This document shows positions 1 to 17,200 of a stretch of 19,712 bases of DNA, piece after piece; within the stretch, counting starts at the first letter, position 1, and each line of letters opens with the position of its first letter. The notes under the pieces are model-generated. The model worked only from the letters and a program-made list of their open reading frames with translations, searched no databases and had not been told where the DNA came from. This DNA comes from an uncultured bacterium (GTDB lineage: Bacteria > Acidobacteriota > Thermoanaerobaculia > Multivoradales > JAHZIX01): positions 1-19,712 of the forward strand of contig CBDUPA010000042.1 of assembly GCA_965368975.1 (NCBI GenBank), given 5' to 3'. The translations under genes and the position numbers were made by a program.

Positions 1-253
1 CACCACGAGCGATCGCGGCCAGCTTTTCGCGCGCCTGATCGCGCGCATCCGCCAGACTCATCACCGGGTAGACGCCGAGGTTCAAGCGGCGCTTGCTGCC
101 GCTGGCGCCCTTGTAGCGCACGATGAACGTCTTGCGACCGCTCTTCGAGACGCGCACCCCGAAGCCGGGCAGCTGGAGATCCCAGTAATCGGTCATCCAG
201 CGGCCGGCGGTGAAGGTCTCGATGGTGCGGTGGGTCAGGTGAGCTTTCGGCAT
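1..253 (-). CDS. Tyrosine integrase, N-terminal Arm DNA-binding domain (DUF4102/Arm-DNA-bind_3 type); 3' end runs off the window
   Basis: Not in the ORF track. Hand translation from ATG at 253 gives MPKAHLTHRTIETFTAGRWMTDYWDLQLPGFGVRVSKSGRKTFIVRYKGASGSKRRLNLGVYPVMSLADARDQAREKLAAIARG, matching the typical WD..LPGFGVRV..SG.KTF..RY....R...LG.YP.MSLA.AR pattern. The RBS GAGGT overlaps the TGA of the upstream gene. The catalytic domain is outside the window. Confidence 0.9.
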   Translation of the reverse strand, partial: MPKAHLTHRTIETFTAGRWMTDYWDLQLPGFGVRVSKSGRKTFIVRYKGASGSKRRLNLGVYPVMSLADARDQAREKLAAIARG

Positions 254-262
254 CGTCTGACC

Positions 263-1252
263 TCACCGCACCGGCTGCACCTGGCACCACTGGCCAGCGC
301 CCGCGACGGTGATCGAGGCGTACAGCTCGACGCCCAACACCCTCCCGGCCTCTTGGAGCCGATGCGTGAAGCGCTCATCCTGCCGGCTTGGTCTCGGATT
401 GCCGGACGGGTGGTTGTGCCCGACCACGACCGAGCGTGCATTAGCCAGCAAAGCCGGCGCCAAGATGCCGCGCGGCTCGGCTTGCGCTCCGGTCAGGATC
501 CCGATGTAAGGCACGTCCCAGCCGATGACCCTGCGGTTCCCGTCCAGGAAGAGTACGGCCAGGGCTTCGCGGTCGTAGCCCTGCAGCACCTGCCACAGCA
601 GCGCCGCCGCGTCACCACCAGCGCAGACTCGGGGATAGGCGTGCAGAGATGCGCTCGCCTCCCGCACCAACTCGACGCGAAATCGTGGCACCTTCGGCAG
701 CAACGGTTCCTTGGCGCGCCAGTATGGACTCGTCGGCTGGCTCTTGAGGAGGTTGGCGCGGCAAGGCCGAGGCTTTCTTTGATCGCCGGACAGAACAGTA
801 AAGAGCGGAGCCAAAGCACTCTCGTCGAGGCCGATCTTCTGCAGCTCAGCTTTCAGGTCTGCGCCGGGCCGCAGATCGGTCCAGCCGAAACGGTGCACCC
901 GCTCCCCCACCTCGAAACCGACCTCCTGTGCGAGGTCGCGGAACTTCCGGCTGTGATAGCCACGATGGCAGCAGTCCTTGATACCGCGTAGACCGTTGAC
1001 CCAATGCACCATCGCGTGCAGCAGAGATGCCGCGACCTCGGAGGTCGAGCCCGTCAGTGCATGGGCGGGCACGCGGACCGGTGGCGTTGGTTCTTCGTCC
1101 TCATGCCGCGCACCAGGTGAGATGCCCTCAATCTGTACGCGTAGTGGAACCTGCGCCAACTCGGGTCCGAAGCGGTCGAGGAGCTGAGCGCAGCAACGCT
1201 CAAGCTCCTGTTCCGCTCGTGCGACGTCGGTGCCGGTGTCCATGACCGGCAT
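263..1252 (-). CDS. Fusion of an SprT-like zincin domain (HExxH changed to HAxxH) and a C-terminal RadC-type JAB domain
   Basis: C-terminal DREALAVLFLDGNRRVIG...EPRGILAPALLANARSVVVGHNHPSGNPRPSRQD...LQEAGRVLGVEL is RadC/JAB with intact E and HxH..S..D. N-terminal SLLHAMVHWVN..GIKD....YHSRKF...A.EVG resembles SprT-like LLHEMVH...GIKD...YHN.KF. Starts 3 nt after the upstream stop, with GGAG upstream. Confidence 0.85.
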   Translation of the reverse strand: MPVMDTGTDVARAEQELERCCAQLLDRFGPELAQVPLRVQIEGISPGARHEDEEPTPPVRVPAHALTGSTSEVAASLLHAMVHWVNGLRGIKDCCHRGYHSRKFRDLAQEVGFEVGERVHRFGWTDLRPGADLKAELQKIGLDESALAPLFTVLSGDQRKPRPCRANLLKSQPTSPYWRAKEPLLPKVPRFRVELVREASASLHAYPRVCAGGDAAALLWQVLQGYDREALAVLFLDGNRRVIGWDVPYIGILTGAQAEPRGILAPALLANARSVVVGHNHPSGNPRPSRQDERFTHRLQEAGRVLGVELYASITVAGAGQWCQVQPVR

Positions 1253-1255
1253 CGC

Positions 1256-1666
1256 TCAGCTCTCCGGGTCCGGAGACGTCCCCAGAATGTCTTCGAGTCG
1301 GGCTGCGTGACCACCCAACTGCTCGGACAGTTCGACGGCGACGAGGTGCAGTTTCACCTGCTCGGGATCGTCCACGCTACCCGGCTCGGCGCCGACGTGA
1401 TGGATATAGCCTTGAAGCTGGCGCAAATCTCGGAGCGCGGCCCGTAGGTCCGACTTGACCGGCACCTCGCCACGCTCCTTATAGGTCTCCTCGTGGAGCA
1501 GGGCATTGTCGTAGAGCGTCACGCCGACGCTGCGGAAGGCGTCACGGATGTGTGCTTCCGGGTAGAGGTGCAAGTACGTCTCCCGGAAAACGGCATGCGC
1601 CTCCCAATGGCTCGGTTGCAGAGAGTTCGGCGTTGCCGGATTGGTATGCTGCGGCTGGTCACTCAT
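1256..1666 (-). CDS. Hypothetical protein, 136 aa, probably helical; first gene of the operon leading to the integrase
   Basis: Strong RBS (AAGGAG, 8 nt before ATG), protein-like composition, and only a 3-nt gap to the next gene. No family recognised. Confidence 0.8.
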   Translation of the reverse strand: MSDQPQHTNPATPNSLQPSHWEAHAVFRETYLHLYPEAHIRDAFRSVGVTLYDNALLHEETYKERGEVPVKSDLRAALRDLRQLQGYIHHVGAEPGSVDDPEQVKLHLVAVELSEQLGGHAARLEDILGTSPDPES

Positions 1667-1726
1667 GGGGTCATCTCCTTTGAGTGGCTAGGCCCGGTTC
1701 GGTGCTCTAACACCGGATCGGGCCGC
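1661..1726 (+). ncRNA. Putative cis-antisense RNA with SymR-like architecture, covering the start codon and RBS of the 1256..1666 gene; ends approximate
   Basis: Hairpin GGCCCGGTTCGGTG-CTCTAA-CACCGGATCGGGCC (1691-1724). All 14 positions pair on the + strand (two G-U wobbles), whereas the mRNA strand has two A-C mismatches. It directly follows CAT...CTCCTT, the antisense of the ATG and RBS. Confidence 0.4.
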
Positions 1727-1794
1727 TTGCTTGGAGGGTGACTTGCCTGCGCTGGCACAGCCTGGACAGGCCTTCACCCCGATAGGCTGGTACC

Positions 1795-1822
1795 ACTACA
1801 GCGGGAAGGGACGACCTGTCAA
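1795..1822 (-). promoter_or_regulatory. Possible sigma70 promoter for the hypothetical-SprT/RadC-integrase operon
   Basis: Perfect TTGACA at 1822-1817. The -10 candidates are poor (TGTAGT at 16 nt, TAGTGG at 18 nt). Confidence 0.25.
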
Positions 1823-1865
1823 CCAGAAACCCTGAACCAGATGCAGAAAGCCATATCAATCACAC

Positions 1866-1882
1866 TGCATCCTATATGCCAA
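1866..1882 (-). promoter_or_regulatory. Possible sigma54 -24/-12 element upstream of the integrase operon
   Basis: Minus strand reads TTGGCATATAGGATGCA: TGGCA with exact GG-N10-GC spacing, in an AT-richer intergenic patch. Confidence 0.3.
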
Positions 1883-1940
1883 GGAACTTGGCTAGCACCC
1901 CTCATGGTGCAGGCGTTCGCTCGGACTCAGACGTCCAGCC

Positions 1941-4900
1941 TCAGATGTCGCAGTGCAAGTTGTTGTAGGCATCGAGCTGGTCCTTCAGCTCGTTGCCTCG
2001 CTTGCGGTCGGCCCCCTTCGGATTACTGCCCGGCGGGAAGTCCTGCAGGAAGGCATCTGCCGCCTCGACGATAGGCAGGATGAAGGGATCAGTGCCGTTG
2101 GCCAGGTTGAGCTTGGTGGCGACCAGGTGGTGTGCCAGCTTGCTGGCGGCGTCGGGGCCGCCGTACTGCAAGAAGCCCATCAGCTCGACATCGCCGTACT
2201 CGACACCACCGAGGGTGAGACGATCAACGGGCCAGTCTTCGCGGTGGGTCTTCCAGTAGCCCGGTGAGCGGGTACAGGCGTCGTCATCGAGGATCTGTCC
2301 CTCGATAACCAGCTGGAGCAACAGGACGAGATCGGGTTCGACGAGCTGCATGCCCAGCTGCAGCGTCTCGCGCCCCTCGTCGAGGTCATCGCCCAGGACG
2401 CTGACGGGCACCTGTGTGCTTGTCGTGCCGGGCTCCAGGACCAGACTCCCGGTCGCCGCCAGGTAGTCCTCACCAGCCGTGGCCGTGATGTCCACCGTCT
2501 CGTAGGCCAGGACGACAGGCTCAGTCAGTGCGCAACTGAGCTGGACGGTGAAGAGCAGCTCCGCCGTGTCGCCGATGTCGCCTTCGACCACCGGCTCGCT
2601 GGTCGCCCAGATCACCGGCTGGCGCAGGCTGGTCAGCGAGAGGACAGCAACCTGGTCAGGAACAGCCCACACACGTACACGCACGGACTCGACACCCGTG
2701 ATGGCGTCCAGGGTCTCACTGAGCGTCAAAGCCTCGACAGGGCCGATCACATCGCCGCTGTCGAAGGCGTCGAGCAGCAGGCCGCCGCCGTCCAGGGCTT
2801 CCACCTGGACGCGAGCCGTCTCACCATCGGCCAGGCTCAGCGTGAGCGCGAAAGCGATGCGCAGCTCGCTACTGCCGAGCGTGCCGCCGCCGTAGGCACG
2901 GACGTCGACGGTGTGCGTCCAGACGCGGTCCGTCTGCGTCCAGGCTTGCGTGCCGAGGGCCGGCAGCAGCTCCGGTCCTGGGCACAGCTCGTCGTCGAGG
3001 ATCGTCGCCAGCGCTTCGGCATCAGCCAGCTGTGCGACGGTCGGCTCGCTCAATTCGAGGCGGAAGGTCTCCTCGGCCGGTTCGAAGAGGGAATCGCCCA
3101 GGATCGGGACGTTGACGTTCTGCGTCGTGACGGTCGGCGCGAAGGTCAGCTCGCCCTCGGTTGTCGTGTAGTCCTCGCCCGCGAGCGCGGTGTCGTCGGC
3201 CGTGCTGTAGCGCACGGTGACGTCGCGATCGGCGGGGTTGGACAGCCGTACCTCGAAGCGTGCTTCGCTATTTGTATCGCCTTCCTCGACTTCGACGTCT
3301 GCCGCCGAGAGCAAGGCTTGATCGTCGTCGAGGATGGTGACTTGCGCCTCACCATCGACGAGCACACCGCCGTCGACGCTCGTGACCTGCACCAGGAACA
3401 CCTCGTCGAGTTCATCGACATCGTCGGCAGTGACCGGCACCGGGATCACGCTCTGCGCCTGCCCGCTCGGGACGGTGAGACTGCCGGCGGTGGGCGTGTA
3501 GTCCTGGCCGGCGAGGGCACTGCCGTCGACGGTGGCGAAGTGGACCGTGACCGGCTGGCTCGACGTTTCGGATAGCAGCACGGGCACGCCCGCCAAACCG
3601 GCGGCTTCCCTGATAGCCAAATCGCCGAGGCTGACATCCGGCTCGGCGGAGACAGCATCGACGGTGACGCTCAGCTCGGCGCAGCCGCGACCGCCGTCGT
3701 CGTCGAAGACGCACAGGCGCACCAGGTAGGTGCCGGCTTCGCTGTAGGGATGCGAAGCCTGTACCGTGCCGCCGCCGGCTTGCTGGTCGAGCGCGACGAC
3801 TTCGGGCGCACCGTCGCCCCAGTCGATCTCGGCGCGGTGGGTGTCGAGCAGCCCCGGGTCGGTGAAGGTGCCAACGACCTCCAGCGGACCGCCGACCGTG
3901 AGGTCGTAGTCCGTGGTCAGCACGACGGTCGGCGCGACGTTGCGCACGGTGACCGTGGCACGGTCGCATGCCGGGGCACCACCGGCGGCTTGCCAAGCGG
4001 CTTCCTGGACGCACACTTCATGCTCGAAGACGCCGTCGTCGCCGAAGCGGTGCGTCGCTTCGATCGGGCCGATGCCGCAATGCGGAGTGCCCAGTGTCGC
4101 CGGCTGGAACGGCTCCCCGGCCCAGCTGACCTCGGCGCCGTAGCTGCGCGGCGGCAGCTGCGGGCCGCTGATGCGCAGGGCTTCGAGGTCGCAGGCTTCG
4201 AGCACCTCGCCGATGATGAAGGCTTCGTCGATGGAGCCGATCCACGGCTCGTAGTACTCCGGGTTAACACCCAGCCAGGTACGGTCGAAGCCGGGACCGA
4301 CATAGCCCTGGCCAACCAGCTCCTGTCCGTCGACGTACAGGCGTACGCTCTGCAGCGCAACGCCGTCCTGGATCGGCCCGATCTGCTCGTAGACGGCGGC
4401 GACGAAGGTCCACTCGCCGTGACGGATCGGCACCACGCCGAGTACGGATTCACTGCCCTGGAAGATCGACCAGCCGAAGTCGCCGCTGCGATAGTCGACG
4501 ACCAGCGTACGGTCGAAGCCGCCACTGTCGTGCGAGATGACGGTGTTGATAACGTAGCTGAAGCCCGGCACGGTCTTGACCCACGCACCCATGGTCAGCT
4601 TGGGCTGAGCGGTGACGTTGATGTCGACCGGGATCTCGATCGAGTCGCCGTCGTAGAAGCCACCGAACTCGTAGGCTCCGCCTCGATAGCCCTCGGTCGG
4701 CGTCGGCGTGCCCCAGATGGAGCCGTGGTTCTCGTTGCCGCTGGCATCCTGGACGTCGCCGTCGAGCGGTAGGTAGGCGAGCAAGCGGCCGTTGTCGAGC
4801 GGTGACAGGCCGGGCTGATCGAGCGACGCCTGCAGCGCGTAGGGCGAGCCCTCGTCGACACTGCCCGGCTGGATGCTGACGCGCGGCGCTTGCGGATCGA

Positions 4901-7900
4901 TGAACTCGACCGGCAGTTCGACGACGTGATCGTCCGGCGTGGTGTCGACGCCCTGGCTGCCGTCGTCCCACACTTCGAGCTGCACGAGCACGCCGTCGCC
5001 CGGAGTAGTGGTATTGGGTGCTCGCACCTCGACGGTGATGTCGAGCTGCGCGCGGTAGGCCAGGTGGTCGAGGCTCCAGACCAGCGTGCCAGTCGTGGCA
5101 TCAAAGCTCGACGGCGCCGGTTCGATGGCGCCGATTTCGAGCGGTGGCGGCACCACGGCGAGCAGCTCGACATTCGTCGGTTCGAGCGTGCCGTGGTTGG
5201 TCAGGCTCAGCGTCAGCGGCACGCTCTCGCCGGGGCGCAAGCTGCTCGGCTGCACGTCGCCGGAGAGGCCGAAGTCGAGCAGCGGACCGCGCCAGTAGAC
5301 CAGAAAGCTGTCGCACGCTTCGCCGCCGTCGTCGTCCGTGACGCAGACGCGCACCGGGTAGTCGGTCTCCAGGTCGTAGGCGTGCTGCGCGACGATGCGG
5401 CCGGCGCTGCCTTCGGCGCTGGCTGTGGGCGTCACGGCAACGCTCTCGATCGTGCCGTCGCCCCAATCGACCGTCGCTGTGTGCGTGTCCGCCGGACCGG
5501 CGTCCCAGTAGCTGGCGTCGAGTTCGAGGAAGCCGCCGACATAGGCGGGACGGTCGGGACCGGCGTCGATCTGCGGCTCGGCGTTGATCACGGTGAGCGG
5601 GAAGTCACCACAGCCGGTGTCGGTGCCATCGTCGACGCACACCTGGGCCACGAACTCGCCGTCGTCCGGATAGGAGTAGCTGGCGTGGATGCGACCGAAG
5701 GTCTGGCCGTTGGCGACCCAGCTATCGAGACCCGCGGCCGTGGTGTTGCCGTCGCCCCAGTCGACCGTCGCGCTGTGGCTGTCCGCGCTGCCGGGATCGA
5801 CGAAGGCGGCGCCGAGCGGGAAGGTGGAGCCTTCGAGCACCGCCAGTCCCTCGACGCGCACATCGTAGAACTGCACCAGGCCGAGGTTGAGCGTGTAGAA
5901 ACCGAAGCGACCGCTGCCGAAGGCGTAGTCCCCGCTCAGGTCGGCGATGGGGTTGCCGTTCATCCAGATCTGCACGCGATCGGCGCGGCTCTCGACGCGG
6001 AAGCGGTACTCCCAGCCGTTGTTCCACGGGCTGTAGCCCCAGGCGTCGTGGCTGCGCGAGATCTCGGTGACGCCATTCGACAGCCCGTTGCACTGCAAGT
6101 CGACGTGCGCCGCCAGCTCGGAGATGAGCGGTACGCCCCGGACACGCGAGACGGCCAGGCCACCCTCCGCATAACCACTGCCGCACTCCGGATTCGCCGA
6201 GATCTGGGCACCGCTTCGCTTCCAGTCGACGAGCAGGAAGTCGGCTTCCGGGTTGGCAGCGTCGCCCGGACGGTAGCCGAGCACGAAGCCGAACCAATCG
6301 TAGTCCCAGAAGGGGATCGGTCGCACGGTGAACTCGAGCGTCAGGCCGGTCGCCAGGTAGGGGCTCAGGAAGACCGTGGCCTGCGAGTCGTTCAGCTGCT
6401 CGACCTGCGTGCCTGACGGCGCCACCTGCCAGTCCGGCGAGCGCTGGTCGTAGGCCCAGCTCTCTGCCGTCCACAGCCGCAGGTCCGCGCCCTCGGTCGA
6501 CGCGCTGACGACCGGCGCCGCATTGACGACACCGAGAGTCTGCGAGCGACAAGATTCTCCGCCGTCGTCGTCCCGCAGGCACAGACGTACGGTGTAGCTG
6601 CCGTCCTGGCCGTAGGCGTGCGAGGCGCGCACCACGGAAGCCGCGGCATCGACCGTGGCCGGTTCGACGACTCCGTCGCCCCAGTCGACCGTCGCGCTGT
6701 GGCTGTCGTCGCTGCCGGCGTCGCTGTACGCCACGTCGAGGTGCAGTGCCTCGCCTTCGGCCGGAGCGGACAGGACGAGCGGATCGAGCACGGGGGCGGC
6801 GTTGGCGACCGTCACTTGCGTGCTAGCGATGTCGACTTCTCCACTGTCGTCGATCACCTGCAGCGCGACCGTGAAGACACCATTGTCCGCGAAGATCCAG
6901 GTCGGCGCCACGATCGAGGCATCGTCGAAGATGCCGTCACCGTCGAGATCCCAGGCATAAGCCACCAGCGTACCGTCGCGGTCGGTGGAGGCCGAGCCGT
7001 CGAGTTGCACGGGCGCACCCTCGGTGCCGCTGTAGGGGCCACCGGCGTCCGCGCGAGCGCTGGCGATGACATTGGTGTCACTCGCCTGGTTGTTGGCGGG
7101 CGTCGGGTCCGGACCGGCCGAACCGTCGTCGGTGACCGTGGCAATCATCGTCAGCTCGGTGACGCCCGCTGGTAGTCCGGCGTCGACATCGACGATGAAA
7201 GTGATGTCGCTGCTCGTACCTGCGCCCAGGTCACCGAGCTGCCACTCCAGCGTGTCCAGACTGCTCGTGCCGGCAGGGATGTCGACGCGTAGCGTCACGC
7301 CTGTGCGCGCCCCCGGTCCAGCGTTGACGACGGTCGCGGTGACGGTCAGGGAATCGCCCGGATGCATGCGCTCGACGCCGTCGACCAACTGCACGGCCAG
7401 GCCGACGTCAGTGGTGTCGTAGGCGAAGCGATGCTCGTTGTTACTCTCGTTACACTCGCGCAAGGCGTCTTCCGGGTCGACCTGCACGACGACCTCGCGG
7501 GCACCCCAGATCTCACCTCCAGCGCCGAGGCTTGTAGCATCGAAAGTCAGCGCGACGTCCTCGAAGCGTCCCGGCACCAGCGCCTGGCTGGTTGCCGCGA
7601 CACCCAGCAGAGCGCCACCGGTCGCCGGGTCGCCGTCATAAGCGTGCACCGGCACTCCGGCAGGCGCGGCGGAGGTCCCACCGTTGCCCACGCGCACCGT
7701 CACCGCAATCTGCGGCCAGGCATCGAAGTCGACGCGCAGGTACGACGCCGACAGATCCGCCGCCGCCAGCGGATCGACGCCCACAGGCGCCACGTTGGCG
7801 CGGAAGGTATTGTGGGTCAGCCAGGGGTGCGGCGCAGTCGCTGGCACCGAGCCGTCGTCGCGTACGTTGTCGGCGTGGAAGGCGTGCTGGTTCCACACCT

Positions 7901-10424
7901 TGCGCGCCGGTCGCCAGTTGCCGGTGGCATCGCCGTAGACACGCAGGCCATAGGAACGCTCGGGCAGGCCGTCGAGCTGCGTCGCCAGGTCGCTGGTCAC
8001 CAGCACCTCGGCACCGCCATCGCCGTCGACGTCCGCCACCACGACCTGCTCGTTCTGGGTGATCGAGCTGAAGGCATCCTCGAACAGCACCGTGCCGTCG
8101 CTACCGCGGAAGATGCGCAGGTGCGCCTCGTCGCGGTAGAGCACCTCGAAGCGGCCGTCACCATCCAGGTCGAAGACGGTCGAGCCGGTCATGTTGGAGC
8201 TGCCGTCACGTACCGAGCGCTGCCACTTGACGCTGCCGTCGCCCTCGAAGACCGCGTACTGGGTCGAGCCGGCGACACCGATCTCAGGTGCCCCGTCGCC
8301 GTCGAAGTCGGCGATCGTCGGAGCGCCACCGGCTTCGTCGCCAGCTCCCGGCAAGTCCACCGGCCCCCAGATCAGCGTGCCGTCGTGCTCGTGCAGGCGC
8401 AGCTGTCCCCGCGCCACCACGACGATCTCGGGGTAGTCGTCGCCGTCGAAGTTGGCCACCGCTGGGTACCCGTCGGCGTGGGTTTCATCGAGCTGCCAGT
8501 AGACGCTGCCATCAGCACGGTAAGCCGTCGTCCCCGTGACCACCTCGGCCGTACCGTCGAGATCGAGATCTGCGGCGATCGAGATGGCGCCCGAGTCGAC
8601 GCCGTCGCGATTAGACGCACTCTGGTACGCCTGGCCACCGCTACCGCTCCAGCGAAGCCGGCCCAGGCCGTCGAAGACGTGGGCGCCGACCAGGATTTCC
8701 GGCTGGCCGTCACCATCCAGGTCCGCCAGCGTCGGGTTGTCGCGGTTGGTCAGCGTCGTGCCGTCTGGGTGCGTCGAGTAGCCTTCGCTGATCCAGCGTC
8801 GACGACCCTGATTGTCGTAGGCCACCAGGCGGTTCGGGCGACCATCGAAGAAGCCCGAGACGATGATCTCGGTCGTCCCGTCGCCGTCCAGGTCGCCTGC
8901 CGCTAGCCCGGAGAGCGAGAAGATCACGAATTGTGACACCGGCGGCACGACCGTCCACAAGGCGCTACCGTCCGCGCCGCTGATCGCACGCAGGCGCACG
9001 CGCGGATCGAGTAGGTTGCCCAGGTTGGCGGTGACGAAGACGATGTCCGGCGTGTCCTCGCCGTCGAAGCGTCCATCACCGTTGTCGTCAGTGAGCTGGA
9101 CCACGATCGGCGTCGCCACGCTTTCCTTGCTCAGCGGTTCCTCGATGGCAGGTTGCCCATTGTCGTCCAGCGGTGGCCACGACCACTCGACCACCGGCTC
9201 GAACACCCCCACCGGCGGCGCCACACGGCAGCCCGTCGCGCTGCGGGCGAGGTTGTCGTCCTCGTCCAGCTCGGCGACGGTGTCACGGCTGTCGACCCAG
9301 GCCCACAGCGGCGCGTCGAGGAAGCTGAGCGTTCCACTCAGCGGCACGCTCAGATCTGAGGTCGCGCCAGCGGCCAGCTCAGCAGGGAAGGTCGCGGCAC
9401 CGAGCACGGTATCCGCAGCCGACAGCGCCCGATCGCCGTCGAGGTCTTCGAAAACCGTCACCTCGAACGCCGTGCTTGCGCTCACAGTTGCGGCACCGGT
9501 GTTGGCGACGGTGACGAGGCCGCTGCCCGTCACGGTCAAGGACTGCGCATCCGCCGTCGGCGGCACCACCGCCTCGACCGTCAGGTTAGCCAGCTGCGCC
9601 AGCGTGGTGACGTCGGTCGCGCTGTTGTCGGCCGGTTCCAGGTCCCGGCCACCGGTGCTCGTGGCACTGGCGCTGAAGAGGAGTTGGGCGAGGTCGGAAG
9701 GCGGTGCCGTGTCCACGCGCACTTCGACGGTGCGCGTCACCGCAGTACCCGCCGCCAGCTCGAAGGCGGGCCACGTCACGGTCCCCACCGCTCCCGAAGC
9801 CGTCCCGGTCGTCGGATCGAGCGCGCCGTCGTCCGAAGCGGTCAGGAACGTGATGCCGTCGGGCAGCGTCGCCGTCAAGAGCGTGCCCGTCGCGCGGCGC
9901 GTGCCGTCGTTGCGCAGCGTCAGCTGGTACTGCAGAAGATCGCCAGGCAGCGCTTCCGCGCGACCATCGTCCACCGTCACCACCAGGTCCGGCGCGGCGC
10001 TCAGCACTTCCGGCGGCGCCACGACGTCGAGCGGCAGGTACCTGCCCTCTTGCCACAGCACCGACGCGGGAGCCGACTGCGAGACGACGAATTCGTCCAC
10101 GCGCAGCTCGACCGCCTGCCCGGCAAGGCCACCCTCGACAACAGACGTGTCCAGGCGGTCGCCCGGAATGTCCAGCCGGAAGGATGCGTCCGCCGCCACC
10201 GTCGTCTCGGCGAACCGCTCGCCACCGATCCAGGCTGACAACGCGGTCCCCGGTGGCAAAGCGTCCCCGGACTCCAGCGCCACCGTCCCGAACCAGCTCG
10301 ACGGCAACGGGTGCGGCTCGTCTGCCCAGACACTTTCGATCCAGCCTCCCAGAGCTGCAAGTCCAACGAATGCACACAGCACAAACCAAGCCGACGTCTG
10401 CCGCTTCGGCGATCTCATCTTCAT
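1941..10424 (-). CDS. Giant secreted modular surface/adhesin-like protein (DUF11, CARDB, FG-GAP/VCBS beta-propeller, multiple PKD, thrombospondin-C-like and LamG lectin domains, Calx-beta x3, C-terminal PGYWKTH domain)
   Basis: 2827-aa ORF. Signal peptide: basic N-terminus, WFVLCAFVGLAALGG, then VWA. DUF11 motifs PDLVVTVDDG..PGD...Y.LTL.N.G..ADNSATD. CARDB motifs VD....V.ELDEDDN and RECNESNN. Repeated ADLDGDGxPEI (~7800-9200). PKD motifs H.ATVDWGDG..H.Y...G.Y.V. LamG motifs LLAYLPLDG..D.SGN.NHG, W.FVAAVY and GSIDE. Calx-beta motifs V.V.F.T.DG.A.AG.DY..G.L..V.I.DDD. RBS spacing (GAGGG) favours the second ATG at 10418. Confidence 0.92.
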   Translation of the reverse strand: MKMRSPKRQTSAWFVLCAFVGLAALGGWIESVWADEPHPLPSSWFGTVALESGDALPPGTALSAWIGGERFAETTVAADASFRLDIPGDRLDTSVVEGGLAGQAVELRVDEFVVSQSAPASVLWQEGRYLPLDVVAPPEVLSAAPDLVVTVDDGRAEALPGDLLQYQLTLRNDGTRRATGTLLTATLPDGITFLTASDDGALDPTTGTASGAVGTVTWPAFELAAGTAVTRTVEVRVDTAPPSDLAQLLFSASATSTGGRDLEPADNSATDVTTLAQLANLTVEAVVPPTADAQSLTVTGSGLVTVANTGAATVSASTAFEVTVFEDLDGDRALSAADTVLGAATFPAELAAGATSDLSVPLSGTLSFLDAPLWAWVDSRDTVAELDEDDNLARSATGCRVAPPVGVFEPVVEWSWPPLDDNGQPAIEEPLSKESVATPIVVQLTDDNGDGRFDGEDTPDIVFVTANLGNLLDPRVRLRAISGADGSALWTVVPPVSQFVIFSLSGLAAGDLDGDGTTEIIVSGFFDGRPNRLVAYDNQGRRRWISEGYSTHPDGTTLTNRDNPTLADLDGDGQPEILVGAHVFDGLGRLRWSGSGGQAYQSASNRDGVDSGAISIAADLDLDGTAEVVTGTTAYRADGSVYWQLDETHADGYPAVANFDGDDYPEIVVVARGQLRLHEHDGTLIWGPVDLPGAGDEAGGAPTIADFDGDGAPEIGVAGSTQYAVFEGDGSVKWQRSVRDGSSNMTGSTVFDLDGDGRFEVLYRDEAHLRIFRGSDGTVLFEDAFSSITQNEQVVVADVDGDGGAEVLVTSDLATQLDGLPERSYGLRVYGDATGNWRPARKVWNQHAFHADNVRDDGSVPATAPHPWLTHNTFRANVAPVGVDPLAAADLSASYLRVDFDAWPQIAVTVRVGNGGTSAAPAGVPVHAYDGDPATGGALLGVAATSQALVPGRFEDVALTFDATSLGAGGEIWGAREVVVQVDPEDALRECNESNNEHRFAYDTTDVGLAVQLVDGVERMHPGDSLTVTATVVNAGPGARTGVTLRVDIPAGTSSLDTLEWQLGDLGAGTSSDITFIVDVDAGLPAGVTELTMIATVTDDGSAGPDPTPANNQASDTNVIASARADAGGPYSGTEGAPVQLDGSASTDRDGTLVAYAWDLDGDGIFDDASIVAPTWIFADNGVFTVALQVIDDSGEVDIASTQVTVANAAPVLDPLVLSAPAEGEALHLDVAYSDAGSDDSHSATVDWGDGVVEPATVDAAASVVRASHAYGQDGSYTVRLCLRDDDGGESCRSQTLGVVNAAPVVSASTEGADLRLWTAESWAYDQRSPDWQVAPSGTQVEQLNDSQATVFLSPYLATGLTLEFTVRPIPFWDYDWFGFVLGYRPGDAANPEADFLLVDWKRSGAQISANPECGSGYAEGGLAVSRVRGVPLISELAAHVDLQCNGLSNGVTEISRSHDAWGYSPWNNGWEYRFRVESRADRVQIWMNGNPIADLSGDYAFGSGRFGFYTLNLGLVQFYDVRVEGLAVLEGSTFPLGAAFVDPGSADSHSATVDWGDGNTTAAGLDSWVANGQTFGRIHASYSYPDDGEFVAQVCVDDGTDTGCGDFPLTVINAEPQIDAGPDRPAYVGGFLELDASYWDAGPADTHTATVDWGDGTIESVAVTPTASAEGSAGRIVAQHAYDLETDYPVRVCVTDDDGGEACDSFLVYWRGPLLDFGLSGDVQPSSLRPGESVPLTLSLTNHGTLEPTNVELLAVVPPPLEIGAIEPAPSSFDATTGTLVWSLDHLAYRAQLDITVEVRAPNTTTPGDGVLVQLEVWDDGSQGVDTTPDDHVVELPVEFIDPQAPRVSIQPGSVDEGSPYALQASLDQPGLSPLDNGRLLAYLPLDGDVQDASGNENHGSIWGTPTPTEGYRGGAYEFGGFYDGDSIEIPVDINVTAQPKLTMGAWVKTVPGFSYVINTVISHDSGGFDRTLVVDYRSGDFGWSIFQGSESVLGVVPIRHGEWTFVAAVYEQIGPIQDGVALQSVRLYVDGQELVGQGYVGPGFDRTWLGVNPEYYEPWIGSIDEAFIIGEVLEACDLEALRISGPQLPPRSYGAEVSWAGEPFQPATLGTPHCGIGPIEATHRFGDDGVFEHEVCVQEAAWQAAGGAPACDRATVTVRNVAPTVVLTTDYDLTVGGPLEVVGTFTDPGLLDTHRAEIDWGDGAPEVVALDQQAGGGTVQASHPYSEAGTYLVRLCVFDDDGGRGCAELSVTVDAVSAEPDVSLGDLAIREAAGLAGVPVLLSETSSQPVTVHFATVDGSALAGQDYTPTAGSLTVPSGQAQSVIPVPVTADDVDELDEVFLVQVTSVDGGVLVDGEAQVTILDDDQALLSAADVEVEEGDTNSEARFEVRLSNPADRDVTVRYSTADDTALAGEDYTTTEGELTFAPTVTTQNVNVPILGDSLFEPAEETFRLELSEPTVAQLADAEALATILDDELCPGPELLPALGTQAWTQTDRVWTHTVDVRAYGGGTLGSSELRIAFALTLSLADGETARVQVEALDGGGLLLDAFDSGDVIGPVEALTLSETLDAITGVESVRVRVWAVPDQVAVLSLTSLRQPVIWATSEPVVEGDIGDTAELLFTVQLSCALTEPVVLAYETVDITATAGEDYLAATGSLVLEPGTTSTQVPVSVLGDDLDEGRETLQLGMQLVEPDLVLLLQLVIEGQILDDDACTRSPGYWKTHREDWPVDRLTLGGVEYGDVELMGFLQYGGPDAASKLAHHLVATKLNLANGTDPFILPIVEAADAFLQDFPPGSNPKGADRKRGNELKDQLDAYNNLHCDI

Positions 10425-10734: not shown

Positions 10735-11982
10735 ATGCACAGATCCTTTGTGGATCCGAGAGCTGATCCAGATCCGGCGGCACAGCGCCCACCGGCAAGA
10801 TTCACAAGCAACCCGGACGAATTGAACGCGCTTCACCAGTTGTGTCGTGAAGGACGCCTGTACGATGTCGAGCGGTACCTCCAAGCCGACGGACCGGTGC
10901 AGCTTTGTCCCAGCACTCGTATCAGTGGCCGCCGCAATTTTCATTCGGCGCTCGAGATCGCGTTCTCTCGACACAATCAGGCTCTGCTCCTGCTGCTTCT
11001 CGCCAACGGCTACGATCTGGCAGCGGAGCAACAGTGTCCGCTCGATTCGGCTCTCCGGTTGCGCCGCAAGGACATGGTTGACCTTCTGCTGAGATGGGGA
11101 GCGGACCCACATCGGGCCTCTGTCCACATCCTATGTGACAGCTACGACAGCGAACTGTTCGAACGGTTTCTGAACCTAGGCGTAGACTTCACCGCCGGGC
11201 ATGCTCTTGCTGAGGCTCTCGGTGAACACACCAGCAACAAGCCGCTCTTCGGCTTCGCGAAGCGCCATCGAATCAGAGATCCGAAGATCCAAATAGATCT
11301 AGATATGGCGCTCGTTCACCAGGCACAGAATGGCAAGGAGAAGGGGGTGCTTCTTTGCCTGTGGGCAGGGGCTAATCCTCACACGCCCGTACCTGGACTA
11401 GACCAGTGGTACGCCGACATTGAGGATCCGGACGAATGGTCCAGCGCGATCTATGCCGCTTGCAGTGCCGGACATGCAGCCATCTTGAAGCGTCTCGGCC
11501 CAGACCCGGCCTTGGATGACTACGAAGAACTCTATCGTTCCGCCTGCAATGGGGAGACCATCGAGATCCTGGCGCTATCGCAGCTACCTCGTGAGCCATC
11601 GACAGTTATCCTGCGCCAAATTGGGCGAACCACCTTGCTTCATTTCGAAGCGTATCGTCCGGTGGAAGTACTCAAGGCCTTGTTTGAAGCAGGCGTTCGA
11701 TGGGAATCGAGTTCGAAGAGGGAGATTGGAGAAGCTCGCCGAGACTTGCTGCAATCAAGTTACTCGACGTTCGAGGAAGTCCTGAAGCTCCTCTCCACGA
11801 AAGACTACTGTTCACGAGAGGTGCTCACTGAACTCGCGCGGACACCTTCAATTCGCAGGCGAATGCAGAAACAACATCTCATCCCAGATTCCGGAACTTT
11901 CTCGTCAGGCTGGTCGACTCTCTCTCGGGAGTCGCTAGCCAAGTTCGGAATCGACCGACCCAAGGCCAAACGGCGGCAGTAG
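10735..11982 (+). CDS. Ankyrin-repeat-like protein, 415 aa
   Basis: Degenerate ankyrin units: SALEIAFSRHNQALLLLLLANGYD, PLDSALRLRRKDMVDLLLRWGADP, ALVHQAQNGKEKGVLLCLWAGANP, AIYAACSAGHAAILKRL. AGGA lies upstream of the ATG. It is the only long ORF in this interval and converges on the broken paralog with a 23-nt gap. Confidence 0.8.
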   Translation: MHRSFVDPRADPDPAAQRPPARFTSNPDELNALHQLCREGRLYDVERYLQADGPVQLCPSTRISGRRNFHSALEIAFSRHNQALLLLLLANGYDLAAEQQCPLDSALRLRRKDMVDLLLRWGADPHRASVHILCDSYDSELFERFLNLGVDFTAGHALAEALGEHTSNKPLFGFAKRHRIRDPKIQIDLDMALVHQAQNGKEKGVLLCLWAGANPHTPVPGLDQWYADIEDPDEWSSAIYAACSAGHAAILKRLGPDPALDDYEELYRSACNGETIEILALSQLPREPSTVILRQIGRTTLLHFEAYRPVEVLKALFEAGVRWESSSKREIGEARRDLLQSSYSTFEEVLKLLSTKDYCSREVLTELARTPSIRRRMQKQHLIPDSGTFSSGWSTLSRESLAKFGIDRPKAKRRQ

Positions 11983-12005: not shown

Positions 12006-13112
12006 CTAAGTCTTGGAGTCTGCCTGTTGTGCCCGGATCTCGTCGCCCGTCTTGGCGCCAATGCTGCGAAGGTATCGCGTCACATCGTTCTCTTCCCATT
12101 CATAGCCAGCCCAATCAAGTTCTGTTTTCCCGGTCATGCCATCGACGATGGTTTATCCTGGCACCGTTTGCGATCATGTCCTTGAGAATATCGAGGTGTC
12201 CATTACGAGCCACAGGGTGAAGAGCAGGCTTCCCACCGTCGGATAATCTGTTGAGATCTGGCTTCCAGGAAAGAAGCTCGACGAAGAAAGAGTAGACTTC
12301 CGGCAAGATCATATCTGGTGCGATATATGGCAAGACCGTAGCAGCTAAGTCGCGCCGCTTGACCTCATCGAGGGTCAATAGAAAATCTCTAAGCTTGGAA
12401 ATGTCATCTTCAGCTGTAGCGAGTTCAATCGCCTCTTCCCTCAATGCCTGTTCACTATCCAAGTAGCTGCCTAGCTTGGTGGCCAGTAACTCGGGGCTCT
12501 CGGAGCCCGTCACATCTCCAGATGTCTTCCTAAGAGCCTGCTGCAATCGCTTCACCTGTACAAGATCCAGTGACAGTGTGTCTTCTGTTTCGAGCCGCTC
12601 TAGGATGGCCTGTGCCAGTACTGCGAGAGAACGAGCCTTCCCTTTCCGGCGAGAACTCAACCCCATCCTGATGGCATCGTTCAGCCAGCCTGGATCACTC
12701 ACCCGGAGCGCGCCTGCCACACAGAGCAGGCGCACTACTTCTGGGTTACACCGTGCCATCGCAGCGCTGATAGGTGATCCTCGTCGCTGTCGTCTGAGTA
12801 GGGTTCCGGGCACAGGTCTACCCCAAACTCCACGAGCAGACGTGCGGTGTCAATCTGATCTTCCAGGATTGCATCCACCAGAGCATAGGGCAGGAACTGT
12901 GGGTATTGGGTTGGCTGCGTCAGCAGATACTTCAGGCAGTTCTCGGCGCCTTTGCTCGCAGCCAATACCAGCGGATGCAGTTGGTAGTCGCGCAGGGTCT
13001 CGAAGAGACTGTCGGACGTCCAGCCGTCTGCTTCAGCTTGTTTCAGAGCTTCGACATCATCTGCGGCGATGATGGATTCCAGCCGAGGGTGCAAGTTGAT
13101 GCGGGTCAGCAT
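12006..13112 (-). pseudogene. Frameshifted paralog of the ankyrin immunity gene (two single-base indels; pseudogene or assembly error)
   Basis: From ATG 13112, MLTRINLHPRLES...YSDDSDED aligns with 13126..14229. One base is missing at ~12777, after which PISAAMARCNPE...NGARIN continues in another frame. One extra C at ~12150 is followed by IVDGMTGKTELDWAGYEWEENDVTRYLRSIGAKTGDEIRAQQADSKT and TAG at 12008-12006. The total span is 1107 nt (368 aa) versus 367 aa for the intact copy. Confidence 0.85.
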
Positions 13113-13125
13113 GGGGCTCGTGAAG

Positions 13126-14229
13126 CTACGCCTTCTCTTTCGCTTGCTCGGCACGGACTTCGTCTCCCGTCTTACAGCCGATGCTGCGCAGATAGCGAGT
13201 CGTCTCGTTCTCTTCCCACTGGTAACCTGCCTCGTCGAGTTCTGTTTTGCCAGTCAAGGTCGAGACCAGGTTGATCTGTGCGCCGTTGGACACGAGCATC
13301 TTGATGAGTCCTAGATCCCCGATCTGCGCCAAGTAGTGAAGAGCCAGTATTCCACCGTCGTCGCTCTGATTGACATCTACACCCCAGGAGATGATCTCTT
13401 GGCATAGCTGCGACTCAGCAGGCAAGTCGGCAGCCCGAGCGAGGTACGGCAGTACAAGTGAACCGATCTGTAACCGCTTCTCTTCGTCTAAGCCAAGTAG
13501 GAGCTTGCGGAGTTCAGAAACTCCATCTTCTGCGGTTGCAAGGTCAAGGGCCTCTTCTCTGAGAGCATACTCTCCGTCCACGAAGTCGCCGAGAGACTTC
13601 GCCAGCGCATCTAGCCCTATGCTCTCGCTCTTCTTAACAACTTCCTGAAAGACTGTTGCGAGTCGCTTCAACTGCAGAACCTCAAGCGAAAGCGAATCTT
13701 CAGCCTCCAACCTCTTCAAGACTTCCGATGCTAAGAGCGCCAGACTCTCGATCTTCCCCTTTCGGCGACATGTCAAACCTGCCCTAATGGCATCGTTCAG
13801 CCAACCAGCATCACTTACCTGTACCGCCCCCGCCTCACATAGCAAGCGCACCATCTCTGGGTTGCACCGTACCATCGCGGCGCTGATCGGCACGTCCTCG
13901 TCGCTCTCTTCCGAATAAGGCTCAGCACACAAGTCGACACCAAACTCCACGAGCAGGCGGGCGGTTCCTATGTGGTCTTCTTGGACTGCCTCCACCAGGG
14001 CGTAGGGCAGAAACTGCTTATATTGGGTTGGTTGCGTCAGCAGGTAGCGTAGGCAGCTCACCGCGCCTTCGCCCGCGGCCAAAACCAAGGGATGCAGTTG
14101 GTAGTCACGCAACGTCTCGAAGATCTTGTCGGGCGTCCAACCACCCGCTTCAGCCTCTCGCAGAGCATCGACATCGTCTGCAGCGATGAGGGACTCCAGC
14201 TCGGGCTGCAGGCTAACGCGATTTAGCAT
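13126..14229 (-). CDS. Ankyrin-repeat protein, probable cognate immunity protein of the Rhs toxin
   Basis: ATG lies 1 nt after the Rhs stop (TGA-A-ATG). Ankyrin units: HPLVLAAGEGAVSCLRYLL, ALVEAVQEDHIGTARLLVEFGVD, PISAAMVRCNPEMVRLLCEAGA, GVDVNQSDDGGILALHYLAQIGDLGLIKMLVSNGAQIN..TGKTELD. Acidic, with no signal peptide. Confidence 0.88.
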   Translation of the reverse strand: MLNRVSLQPELESLIAADDVDALREAEAGGWTPDKIFETLRDYQLHPLVLAAGEGAVSCLRYLLTQPTQYKQFLPYALVEAVQEDHIGTARLLVEFGVDLCAEPYSEESDEDVPISAAMVRCNPEMVRLLCEAGAVQVSDAGWLNDAIRAGLTCRRKGKIESLALLASEVLKRLEAEDSLSLEVLQLKRLATVFQEVVKKSESIGLDALAKSLGDFVDGEYALREEALDLATAEDGVSELRKLLLGLDEEKRLQIGSLVLPYLARAADLPAESQLCQEIISWGVDVNQSDDGGILALHYLAQIGDLGLIKMLVSNGAQINLVSTLTGKTELDEAGYQWEENETTRYLRSIGCKTGDEVRAEQAKEKA

Positions 14230-14230
14230 T

Positions 14231-17200
14231 TCAAGGTCTCTTTCCCGTGATCGATAGAATCAGGCCAGCGACGCCCTTGCTTCGCACTTCTCGTTCCAGC
14301 CAGTTCCAGTGGTACCGCTTACCACCCTTGAAGGAAACCAGGAACACAAGGTGAGGCGGAAACGCATAGCCACTGGCATGACGCCAAATCGCGTTCCATT
14401 GTCCCCGTTGCTTTCTCTTCCAGGCATTGTAGAAGGAATTGATGCCCAGCTTGATCTCTGCTGTCATCAGGGTCTTCCGACTTCTTAGTGTAGGTGGTCG
14501 GTCACGCACAAGGAAGTCGGGGTAGCGAACCTCGCGTTGTCTTCCCACATTCTGAGGGCGATCATCACATGTGTATCCGTCGGTGAGTACCCTTCCTGAA
14601 CGCTGCTCGATACCCGGCTCAAACCACATCACCTCGGGATTCGTGTCGCGAAATAGGAAGCACAGTGTGTGTGCCGTGAAGTCCTCGAACATGGCCCCGG
14701 CCTTCGAACCGACGGTCTGGGCAAAGCCGAAGGCATCGAGTTCGAAGCCCAGGAACGAGAACAAGAAATCCTTCAGGACGCTGGTCAGCACCTCTCCCAG
14801 CTTCTCGATCGCCCGATCCCGCAGTTCCTTGGCAGCATACGTCTTCGCCGCGCCGACGATATTCTGGACGCTGAGGCTGATGTTGATGTCAACGATGGTG
14901 AACAGCCCGGTCGGATCACCGAAGACCTGCGGGTTATTGTAGGCAAAGATGTAGGGGTGCGCGCTTTGAGGCTCGTAGGGGTCCAGCTCCGCCGCATCGC
15001 GACTCAGGAAGCGGCCGGTTGTCGGGTCGTACCAGCGAGCGCCGAGGTGGTAGAGCGAACTGGACGGCTCCCACCAACCCGCCTGGAAAGCGAAGTCGCC
15101 GCCAGCGGCTTCAGGCGTAGCGGCTGCACCAAGAGGAGCACCGAAGGCGTCGTAGTCGACGTTCTCCAAGCCCTCGTCGGACAGCAGACCCCGGACACTG
15201 CCTTGCCCGTCTTCCAGGTAGTAGACGGCACCGCTGTCGCCGTAGCGCAGCAGGGGACCACCGACCGCGTGGACGTAGGCGGTCCACTCGCCCGCATCGC
15301 TCGCCGCGTAGTGGACGGTGTCGAGTCCCGTCCCGAGGCTCGGTGCGACGACGAAGCTGCGTTCCTCACTACCCTCGACTGTGCCGACGCGCCGCCCCTC
15401 GGCGTCGTAGCGGTGGGTCAACGTCGTGCCACTGGTCGAGGTGGCACTGACGAGGCGATCGATCGCGTCATGTTCGTAGTCCCAGGTCTCGCCATTCCGC
15501 TCTACCTGGCTCACACGGCCATCGGCATCCCAGCTGTACGCCTCGACGACGGTACCGTTCTCGGTGACACTAGCCAGGCGGGTGCCCTCCAGGTACGTCG
15601 AGCTTTGCGTGACGCCATCGATGATGCGCTGAGTCCGGTTGCCGGCAGCATCGAAGGCGTAGCTCACCTCGTGCACCACCGTCCCCTCGGGCGACAGGTG
15701 CCGCTCGCTGGAGACTCGGAAGGCGATGTCGTAGGCGTACTCGACGACGCTGCCGTCTTCACGCTCGACGCGCAGCGGCTCGCCCTGAGGACCGCGCTGG
15801 TAGGCGAACGACTGGAGCACCGTGCCATCGGCGGCGCGGTGCTCGACAGCCGTAACGTGATCGCGGAGGTCATACTGCCACGTGGTCACGACACCGTTCG
15901 GCAGCTCGCGCTGGGTCGGGCGGTTGACGGCGTCATACGTGAACGTCGTCCGCCCTCCCAGGGGATCGTCGATCGCTGTCACGTTGCCGACAGCATCGCG
16001 GGTGTAGCGCGTCACCGCGCCGGCTCCGCCGCCGGGAGGCGTGACCGTCACTGCCGAGACACGGCCGAGCACATCGTGTTCATATGTCACGGCGCTGCCG
16101 TCGGTGCGCTGCAAACCCTGCAGCAGGCTACCGGACGCGTAGGTGTAGCTGGTCGTGGCGATGGCATTCGACGCTTGCGTGAGGCGGGACGCGGCATCCC
16201 AGGAGAAGGCCGCCGAAGTTGACGCGCCGCCTGACGTCGATAGGGTGCGCTGGCTGACGCGGCCACGATCGTAGGCATAGACGATCTCTCCGCCGGATGG
16301 TAGTCGGACGCGGGTTGGCTCGGGCCCGTCCTCGTAGTCGAAGCTGAAGACACCACCGTCCCCGAAGTCGAGACTGCGACGCTGGCCGAGGCTGTCGTAG
16401 ACCTCGCTCCGCAGCACCTCGCCCGTCGGTGCCTGCACGGAGGTCTGATCCTGCAAGCCATCCGCCGTCGGTTCGTCGGTGTAGGTCCAGGTGTGGCCGC
16501 CCGCATCCTGACCCGAGACCAACGCCCCGCTGGCGTCGTAGCCAAACTGACGCACATGGCCGCCCTCATCGGTGAACGAGGTGGGATAGTCGCGGCGCTC
16601 ACCAGGCGGCACGCCGTCGAGGTAGGACCAGGTCCGCTCTCCTCCGTCGCGCAGGACCTGCCGGACGATCACGCCTTCAGCGCCGTACTCCGTGCGCAGG
16701 CTGCGGCCCAGCGGATCCGCCTCCTCGAAGAAGCTCGGACCGTAGTCGAAACTCCAGGTGAAGCCGCGCGCGTTGCGCCGCGTCGCCGTGGCTCCGGACG
16801 GCGTGTAGGTGAAGCTCTCGCGGTTGCCGAGGGCATCAGTGGCGGTGGTCACCTGGCCGGCGGCGTCGAGGTCGAACTCGATCGCGCCGTGGCCGGGAAA
16901 CTCGACGCGATGGACGCGCCCCGCAGCATCGTGCGTGTAGCGCGTCATATCGCCCACGGGATCGGTCTGCGCCGTGGTGCGACCGGTGGCGTCGCGCGTG
17001 TAGGCGAGCGTCGGGGTGCCGTCCTGCGTCCAACCGGCCAGGCGGCCATTGGTGTCGACGCTGCGACCGACTTCGCCGACCAGGGATGTGGTCGAAGTCT
17101 GCCAGAAGCCGTCCTGCCCATAGGTCTGCGTGGCCCAGGAGCCGTCCTCATAGTCGGTGCGCACTTCGCGACCTTCGGCGTCGTACTGGTGCCGCGAGAC

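Follow-up and report, generated by a model that had tools for sequence, protein, structure and literature searches.

A protein of 329 amino acids (aa), in which a SprT-like zincin domain is joined through a linker to a RadC-type JAB domain, is encoded near one end of a 19,712-nucleotide (nt) stretch of DNA from an uncultured bacterium of the Acidobacteriota (Thermoanaerobaculia; Multivoradales; JAHZIX01). This whole stretch, hereafter the window, covers positions 1 to 19,712 of contig CBDUPA010000042.1 (assembly GCA_965368975.1). Comparison with its relatives showed that the fusion gene has the hallmarks of a gene for a two-domain metalloprotein under purifying selection, and its surroundings showed that it occupies the second place in a closely spaced, operon-like series of genes. 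This series is the core of one family of integrative elements, which are linked to attachment-site (att) repeats of tRNA-Thr(CGU). The SprT-like domain is predicted to be unable to work as a conventional zincin peptidase because its three His are kept but its general-base Glu is absent.

The open reading frame (ORF) of the fusion has a GC content of 0.72, 0.49 and 0.76 at the three codon positions, which resembles that of the real neighbouring genes. An earlier interpretation of this DNA, made from its letters alone (the sequence-only reading), had proposed that two metallo-folds are joined here, and this was borne out: the ORF is real and both domains are conserved. The positions it had assigned to HAMVH, the His of GYHSRKF and the JAB motif were all confirmed by script, as was LYAS (Table 1). 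A scan of window positions 1-2000 detected no promoter-like sites and a single terminator-like site, on the opposite strand and inside the gene, which corresponds to the chance level.

Recognition of the N-terminal half as SprT-like came through profiles and the predicted fold. Neither Pfam nor NCBIfam gave a match to it, and for the window protein PF10263 (SprT-like) did not appear at E<=1; within PHROGs, one family of unknown function was matched (phrog_6361, E 3e-7, aa 70-140). A three-sequence profile of the N-terminal half (A2), searched against 1.84 billion representative proteins, detected 1005 relatives at E<=1e-3, 60 of them at E<=1e-10. The counts, alignments and tree that concern relatives rest on the best 150 of these 1005 matches, and 147 listed relatives (P0016-P0162) lie outside the close family. 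PF10263 was present in 109 of the 147 relatives scanned (38/52 and 71/95), in many of them above the gathering score of 25.6 bits, and a 129-sequence profile (A3) matched human Spartan in the PDB (6mdw, E 2.3e-4). The N-terminal domain (aa 1-160), predicted with the 129-sequence alignment, reached a mean predicted local distance difference test score (pLDDT) of 91.6. With Foldseek this model returned nothing from the PDB at E<=1e-3; among viral models two matches lay below 1e-3, the better one to an unnamed protein (E 2.5e-5) and the other to a 'Peptidase' of a Streptomyces phage (E 1.4e-4), and the weaker rows included several phage SprT-like proteins. By profile, with no direct Pfam match, the N-terminal half is thus assigned as a divergent SprT/Spartan-type domain with a probable zincin fold, in agreement with the sequence-only reading. 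Since its HxxxH lies inside a domain with such support for SprT-like homology, the motif is meaningful rather than a chance occurrence.

Within the A3 alignment H79, H83 and H100 are invariant, and D93, N101, F104, G112 and G123 are nearly so. The arrangement of H-x3-H followed by a downstream third His is shared with SprT-like proteins and Spartan (PF10263; 6mdw, 6mdx), and Spartan is described as coordinating its metal with a third His (PMC7213743). The nearest active relatives, proteins of approximately 200 aa listed under PF10263, differ from the fusion in retaining the Glu, for which it has Ala, and in ending in a Cys-rich Zn ribbon (W-x-C-x-C ... C-x-x-C), where the fusion has its linker and RadC JAB domain. 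Of this ribbon the fused proteins have retained, ahead of RadC or SymE, no more than a 'W-x-C-G' or a single Cys, and the window fusion keeps Cys164 only.

At the catalytic column, 165 domain rows were found to hold E in 121, A in 16, Q in 8, K in 7, G in 5, R in 5, D in 1 and a gap in 2. HA[MIT]VH was observed in all 14 of the close-family members that hold the N-terminal domain, including 12 paralogs of the source genome and relatives from other sources. A FastTree phylogeny of 152 rows was calculated from 80 core columns, the catalytic one being excluded; gappy rows and eleven paralogs that are near-identical were not included. One branch, with a Shimodaira-Hasegawa-like (SH-like) support of 98, holds 22 rows, and Glu is absent from all 22, being replaced by A, G, R, K or Q; outside this branch Glu is absent from 9 of 130 rows. 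The 22 comprise all nine RadC-fused proteins (P0041 being counted as such from the alignment, not from a Pfam match), all seven SymE_toxin proteins and six fragments or otherwise unresolved proteins. Because every member of this supported branch is without Glu, the loss is old and shared clade-wide and not a recent point mutation. Fixed ligands combined with a variable residue in place of the Glu fit the signature of a metal-binding pseudo-enzyme, and the Zn-binding pseudo-protease that had been proposed from the sequence is consistent with both the missing Glu and the invariant H79, H83 and H100. The function as a DNA binder or substrate trap that the sequence-only reading attached to it is a hypothetical one.

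The Ala80 codon, GCG, does differ from GAG by one base (position 1014), as the sequence-only reading had pointed out; the recent change that this might suggest is contradicted by the clade-wide loss, and an A-to-E substitution would, given the age of that loss, be an engineered gain rather than a reversion. The single base would also be the starting point for regarding the gene as a decaying pseudogene, or codon 80 as a sequencing or assembly artefact. The occurrence of Ala80 in all 14 family members that hold the N-terminal domain leaves no room for a read or assembly error at that codon, and together with the intact frames of 12 paralogs and a ratio of nonsynonymous to synonymous substitution rates (dN/dS) of 0.18, it refutes this explanation, leaving it with practically no probability.

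The sister proteins of the RadC fusions within the Glu-less clade, P0017, P0025, P0036, P0043, P0050, P0055 and P0070, share with them the three His and the vestigial 'WxCG' and differ in bearing a C-terminal SymE_toxin domain (PF08845, AbrB-fold) instead of RadC. A Glu-less SprT-like and SymE_toxin fusion is also encoded at locus L022 of genome G002 (733-2046, minus strand).

The C-terminal half is a RadC-type JAB domain. PF04002 (RadC) matches aa 214-317 with E 7e-26 and 90.9 bits against a cut-off of 22.1, and the same match was obtained on the genome. The only solved relative found by sequence was RadC of Chlorobium tepidum (2qlc; E 2e-13, 32% identity), which was also the top Foldseek match of the whole-protein model (E 3e-8; model pLDDT 69); in that search only the RadC half was matched, and the linker of the model had a low pLDDT. 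The JAMM motif is complete (E229, H279, H281, S289 and D292), and its residues, like N280, do not vary among eight aligned fusion proteins that represent different sub-clades (A5); Glu229 is the residue that we take to be the JAMM Glu, following the motif E..HxH(x7)SxxD. The NCBIfam full-length RadC equivalog NF000642 was not reached (87.8 bits vs a cut-off of 180, with model positions 89-198 only being covered).

In sharing family match, fold, JAMM and an integrase-bearing island, the domain resembles RadC/YsxA and the short JAB proteins, RadC-like in kind, that genomic islands carry (PF04002; 2qlc); it also differs from them. The fusion protein has no helix-hairpin-helix (HhH) domain. Ordinary RadC has a DH dyad approximately 20 residues past the JAMM Asp, where the window fusion has Ala-Ser. 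Most RadC proteins have PRE where the window JAB domain has PRG. The dyad was tallied in 80 unrelated RadC loci, obtained by a contig scan with the fusion alignment: 78 of these provided 79 RadC motifs, with DH in 75, DS in two, EH in one and NH in one. All 80 loci cover residues from 157 onward only and are plain RadC; the scan was keyed on HNHPSG and is uninformative on how common the fusion is. DH is likewise present in 2qlc and in the genome's own canonical RadC (256 aa). The same canonical RadC is without PRE, having EPRL instead, and for this reason the PRG change constitutes weak evidence, and PRE to PRG as a mark of a defective JAB domain was weakened as a candidate. The sequence-only reading had called this domain intact, which stands for the full JAMM and not for the DH dyad and the PRE.

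The source genome (7.1 Mb in 59 contigs, the window being contig C42) was found to carry 12 full-length copies of the fusion with intact frames and 73-100% protein identity, together with one truncated copy and one fragment. Medians over the 66 pairs among the 12 full-length paralogs, at a median dS of approximately 0.85-1.0, gave a dN/dS of 0.18 for the whole protein, 0.12 for the SprT core, 0.27 for the linker, the most variable part of the fusion, and 0.09 for the JAB domain. These values indicate that selection maintains both domains and that the copies are old. The truncated copy (268 aa, C28:32809-33615) adjoins genes that resemble DNA methyltransferases by their N-terminal sequence only, beyond which a long same-strand run, including a 2143-aa ORF and prophage-like in look, extends to approximately position 5460. 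On C25 the same genome also encodes a fusion of 439 aa that is divergent and of the Gly-type.

Close homologs in an index of 5.8 billion proteins appear to be nearly all this genome's copies, with only P0012, P0014 and a RadC-only protein from elsewhere. When the fusion profile was used for a protein search, 14 matches at E<=1e-30 were obtained, of which almost all belong to the same genome; as known relatives such as P0016 and P0019 were missed, the search provides no census. With the N-terminal half as query, matches were present in two of five other genomes of the same family and in none of 35 from other families of the order, and a 400-genome sample of the phylum, with five candidates scored per genome, gave no match at E<=1e-5. 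One related genome, G001, has two copies, both with a homolog of the upstream gene described below and one adjoining a tRNA-Thr. A scan of metagenome contigs with a three-sequence alignment detected two near-identical loci with a Gly-type fusion.

The 12 full-length copies share a common gene order on the same strand: in every case an orphan ORF of 136-173 aa lies upstream and a P4-type tyrosine integrase downstream and, where the contig runs on, these are followed by an orphan ORF of 139 aa and by another tyrosine recombinase, of 336 aa. The spacing is tight. In the window the upstream gene, ORF136, almost abuts the fusion (Table 1), and the integrase ATG lies 9 nt past the fusion stop. Where complete, the integrase has 384 aa and the domains PF13356 (Arm-DNA-bind_3), PF22022 (Phage_int_M) and PF00589 (Phage_integrase); the one downstream of the C56 copy (C56:2349-3539, minus strand) is split into ORFs of 213 and 175 aa and is probably disrupted. 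A homolog of ORF136 precedes 13 of 13 copies in this genome, and ORF136 is more conserved than the fusion itself. None of its 13 homologs carries a Pfam domain, no match reaching 0.9 was found in the ESM Atlas, and PADLOC gave no match for ORF136, the fusion, the 139-aa ORF or either recombinase. The predicted complex of the fusion with ORF136 scored 0.00, which is evidence neither way.

A core cassette of approximately 4.5-5.6 kb was thus recognized, comprising the att arm, a leader, ORF136, the fusion, the P4-type integrase, the 139-aa ORF, the second tyrosine recombinase and a conserved segment of 137 nt; it occurs at least 12 times in the genome at approximately 75-88% nucleotide identity. 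Several contigs, the window included, end within the integrase gene, where the cassette breaks the assembly. By nucleotide comparison a core of approximately 4.5 kb, and besides it the 137-nt segment, are repeated on many contigs. One copy is immediately preceded by a tRNA-Thr(CGU) (C15:32296-32370), and the 3' 48 nt of this tRNA with an arm of approximately 100 nt are repeated at five other places. The window itself has no tRNA and no att repeat; positions 1675-1726 of its leader are 98% identical (blastn) to the tRNA-adjacent copy. What the window shares with the other copies extends from position 1 to approximately 1830-1850 only, C45 excepted, with which it has 10.6 kb in common at 87% nucleotide identity, including the gene for a 2827-aa surface protein. 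The repeats fit integrative elements that accreted at, or were derived from, a tRNA-Thr site by serial integration, and the tRNA-Thr-linked cassette family with its two recombinases appears to be undescribed.

The tight coupling of ORF136 and the fusion, which persists even where no integrase is present, is what would be expected if the two genes formed an addiction or toxin-antitoxin-like pair that stabilizes the element, and the sister proteins with a SymE-toxin-like domain in place of RadC point the same way. However, both proteins lack matches to known toxin or antitoxin families, and twelve cross-reacting copies of one such pair in a genome would be unusual. Typical antitoxins evolve fast, unlike ORF136 with its higher conservation than the fusion. 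An addiction function is accordingly considered very unlikely.

Zincin-RadC fusions as such are already known. Iyer et al. (2011, NAR 39:9473; PMC3239186) described RadC fused to an ArdC module (a helical domain with a zincin), to a primase and to DinG helicases, reported ArdC-RadC fusions in Firmicutes and Fusobacteria, proposed from context an action of the RadC JAB domain on nucleic acids, and suggested that those RadC JAB domains that are inactive may serve to bind DNA. According to a 2025 review, RadC-like DinG is experimentally unstudied and the catalytic role of the RadC domain is open (PMC11981726). The ArdC-RadC proteins, here compared by description only, resemble the fusion in that a single chain encoded on mobile DNA combines a zincin-like metallopeptidase module with a RadC-type JAB domain. 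In ArdC an N-terminal helical domain binds single-stranded DNA, and the zincin has the ligands His, His and Glu and an intact HExxH (PMC7213743), whereas the fusion has a three-His zincin of the SprT type that has lost the Glu and stands beside tyrosine recombinases; an ArdC-type Pfam domain was not matched by the fusion protein at E<=1. The sequence-only reading had not recognized this fusion as described, which has to be amended, given that zincin-RadC was published in 2011, and holds for RadC with SprT or SprT-like domains, for which no paper was found in the literature searched. New are the version with a SprT-type zincin that has three His and no Glu, its sister relationship with the SymE fusions, and the role of the gene in the core of an element with two recombinases.

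By analogy with ArdC or ArdC-RadC, the fusion might instead be an anti-defence or establishment factor that binds the incoming or excised DNA of the element and neutralizes host restriction or defence proteins. The occurrence of the ArdC zincin module fused to RadC on mobile DNA is in keeping with this, as is the description of the Spartan-like ArdC zincin having an anti-restriction role independent of catalysis (PMC7213743). The neighbourhoods of the integrative elements also carry defence-like cargo, such as a TIR-kinase gene with PADLOC kinase matches. The fusion, however, showed no ArdC-N or other single-stranded-DNA-binding domain by Pfam and no PADLOC match, the cassette showed no genes for conjugation or packaging, and the relatives in G001 and the metagenomes lie outside a recognizable mobile context. 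Such a role is judged improbable.

The fusion is instead proposed, with a probability of about 0.45 for the proposal as a whole, to be an accessory factor of the element. The dead SprT-like domain would serve as a Zn-stabilized recognition module for DNA or for a DNA-bound protein, with RadC or SymE occupying the place that is held by a DNA-binding Zn ribbon in the active relatives, and the JAB domain would provide whatever hydrolytic activity is left. Together with ORF136, the fusion would form an element-encoded factor that is produced with the recombinases and acts, while the element integrates, excises or becomes established, on DNA or recombinase-DNA complexes. Relaxases and tyrosine integrases form covalent tyrosyl-DNA links, and a link of the domain with covalent Tyr-DNA enzymes is supported by the active relative P0093, which is fused to a MobA/MobL relaxase. 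This protein (618 aa) begins with the relaxase, followed by two SprT-like domains, the first with HEMCH and the second with a degenerate QGMCH. In three other proteins (P0068, P0114 and P0148), DUF4096, the N-terminal domain of IS4/IS5 transposases, stands ahead of the SprT-like domain.

Several observations weigh against this proposal. The JAMM residues are gone altogether, by alignment, from two RadC-fused relatives, P0041 and P0084, so the function shared by the clade may need no catalysis; and the JAB domain of the fusion itself is without the RadC dyad and has PRG, not PRE. The copies in G001 have no adjacent integrase, which makes the integrase link not general, and the Gly-type fusion on the metagenome contigs is set amid ordinary chromosomal genes. 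As the G001 copies keep ORF136 without the integrase, and the Gly-type lies among chromosomal genes, the conserved unit of the Ala-type lineage is the pair of ORF136 and the fusion, and the integrase link is specific to the elements of this genome.

The lost residues lend weight to the idea that neither domain is catalytic and that the protein is a Zn-stabilized DNA-binding or architectural factor, for example a directionality or regulatory factor that acts with ORF136 for the adjacent integrases. The SprT-like domain has lost its Glu, the JAB domain its DH dyad and the PRE Glu, and P0041 and P0084 keep the architecture with no JAMM residues at all; the suggestion that inactive RadC JAB domains bind DNA, cited above from Iyer et al., would suit such a factor. 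The gene lies between the att arm and the integrase gene. Excisionase-type genes usually occupy this very place. The JAB domain, however, has the lowest dN/dS (0.09), and the 12 paralogs, like the Gly-type and most Arg-type relatives, have retained every one of the five JAMM residues, a degree of catalytic-residue conservation that exceeds what would be expected for metal binding alone. A doubly inactive protein is consequently regarded as rather unlikely, and the accessory factor with a catalytic JAB domain is preferred.

A bolder version of the accessory-factor proposal may be formulated. The ancient, dead, Zn-binding SprT-like clade might be a targeting domain that brings nucleic-acid-directed RadC-JAB or SymE effectors to DNA or to covalent protein-DNA complexes. 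In the present lineage its RadC version, with ORF136, would have become indispensable to an element with two recombinases, and would resolve, or exert control over, the covalent intermediate between tyrosine recombinase and DNA. In this full form the idea is speculative and distinctly improbable.

Table 1. Coordinates of the fusion gene, its motifs and the associated features (window positions unless a contig is named).
Feature	Position	Strand	Basis or remark
Fusion gene: dead SprT-like domain, linker and RadC-type JAB domain	263..1252	-	329 aa, ATG start; ORF and translation
N-terminal SprT-like zincin domain, aa 1-158	779..1252	-	
HAMVH, aa 79-83; HExxH with general-base Glu replaced by Ala80	1004..1018	-	Ala80 codon GCG at 1015-1013
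His100 in GYHSRKF (aa 98-104), presumed third Zn ligand	953..955	-	
Linker, aa 159-205, with vestigial Cys164 and conserved PRxRVELVRE motif	638..778	-	alignments
RadC-type JAB/MPN domain, aa 206-320	293..637	-	PF04002 and 2qlc matches
Glu229, presumed JAMM Glu, in DREAL	566..568	-	invariant in fusion alignment A5
HNHPSGNPRPSRQD, JAMM H-x-H-x7-S-x-x-D (H279, H281, S289, D292)	377..418	-	position confirmed by script
HNHPSG, aa 279-284	418-401	-	
SRQD, aa 289-292	388-377	-	
LYAS, aa 310-313	325-314	-	position confirmed by script
Ala312-Ser313, site of the DH dyad in ordinary RadC	314..319	-	
ORF136, conserved orphan partner gene	1256..1666	-	stop 3 nt before fusion ATG
P4-type tyrosine integrase, 5' part, Arm DNA-binding domain	2..253	-	PF13356, E 9e-17; cut by contig end
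Conserved leader upstream of ORF136	1667..1847	-	blastn; upstream limit of the part common to all cassette copies
tRNA-Thr/arm repeats	C15:12414-12258, C41:353-193, C48:5625-5781, C49:10575-10415, C28:53347		
Cassette-bearing contigs of the source genome (G000)	C7, C15 (x2), C28 (x3), C42, C45, C48, C49, C51, C55, C56		
Partial cassettes	C37, C41, C46, C50, C54, C57		
Ankyrin-repeat ORF	13126-14229	-	
Ankyrin-repeat ORF	12735-13154	-	
Ankyrin-repeat ORF	10735-11982	+	

The gene for the 2827-aa protein, which is secreted or a surface protein and has Calx-beta, PKD, DUF11, FG-GAP, CARDB and Laminin_G_3 domains, lies upstream of the leader at 1941-10424 on the minus strand and is duplicated with the cassette on C45. 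At the opposite end a large RHS/YD-repeat protein (14231-19711, minus strand) runs off the window and is followed by the three ankyrin-repeat ORFs (Table 1); the layout looks like that of a polymorphic-toxin locus with possible immunity genes, and the 5' 1.2 kb of the RHS/YD-repeat locus are common to C28 and C46. Near other copies, the TIR-kinase gene mentioned above lies between an att-arm repeat and the cassette of C49 (locus L018, 8099-10387, plus strand) and encodes a 762-aa protein with TIR, Ser/Thr-kinase and FGE-sulfatase domains, the kinase part of which matches the PADLOC models PD-T4-6 and mad6. Just downstream of one cassette copy on C28 (59354-61407, minus strand) are ORFs of 102 and 161 aa that may be an antitoxin/PIN-toxin pair, next to which are ORFs of 280 and 404 aa that, by N-terminal sequence only, are recombinase-like and IS91-type-transposase-like, respectively.

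The context of the gene is more interesting than the single residue by which it was first noticed. The fusion provides a clear bacterial case of a putative pseudo-zincin under purifying selection. Few bacterial proteins of unknown activity are as widespread as RadC, and the elements described here offer a testable context for it: a JAB domain joined to a dead domain of the DNA-protein-crosslink-protease type, in an operon-like arrangement with tyrosine recombinases, and in 12 natural variants within one genome. Were the SprT-like clade indeed a targeting domain for covalent protein-DNA complexes, this would provide the first defined substrate for RadC-type JAB domains.

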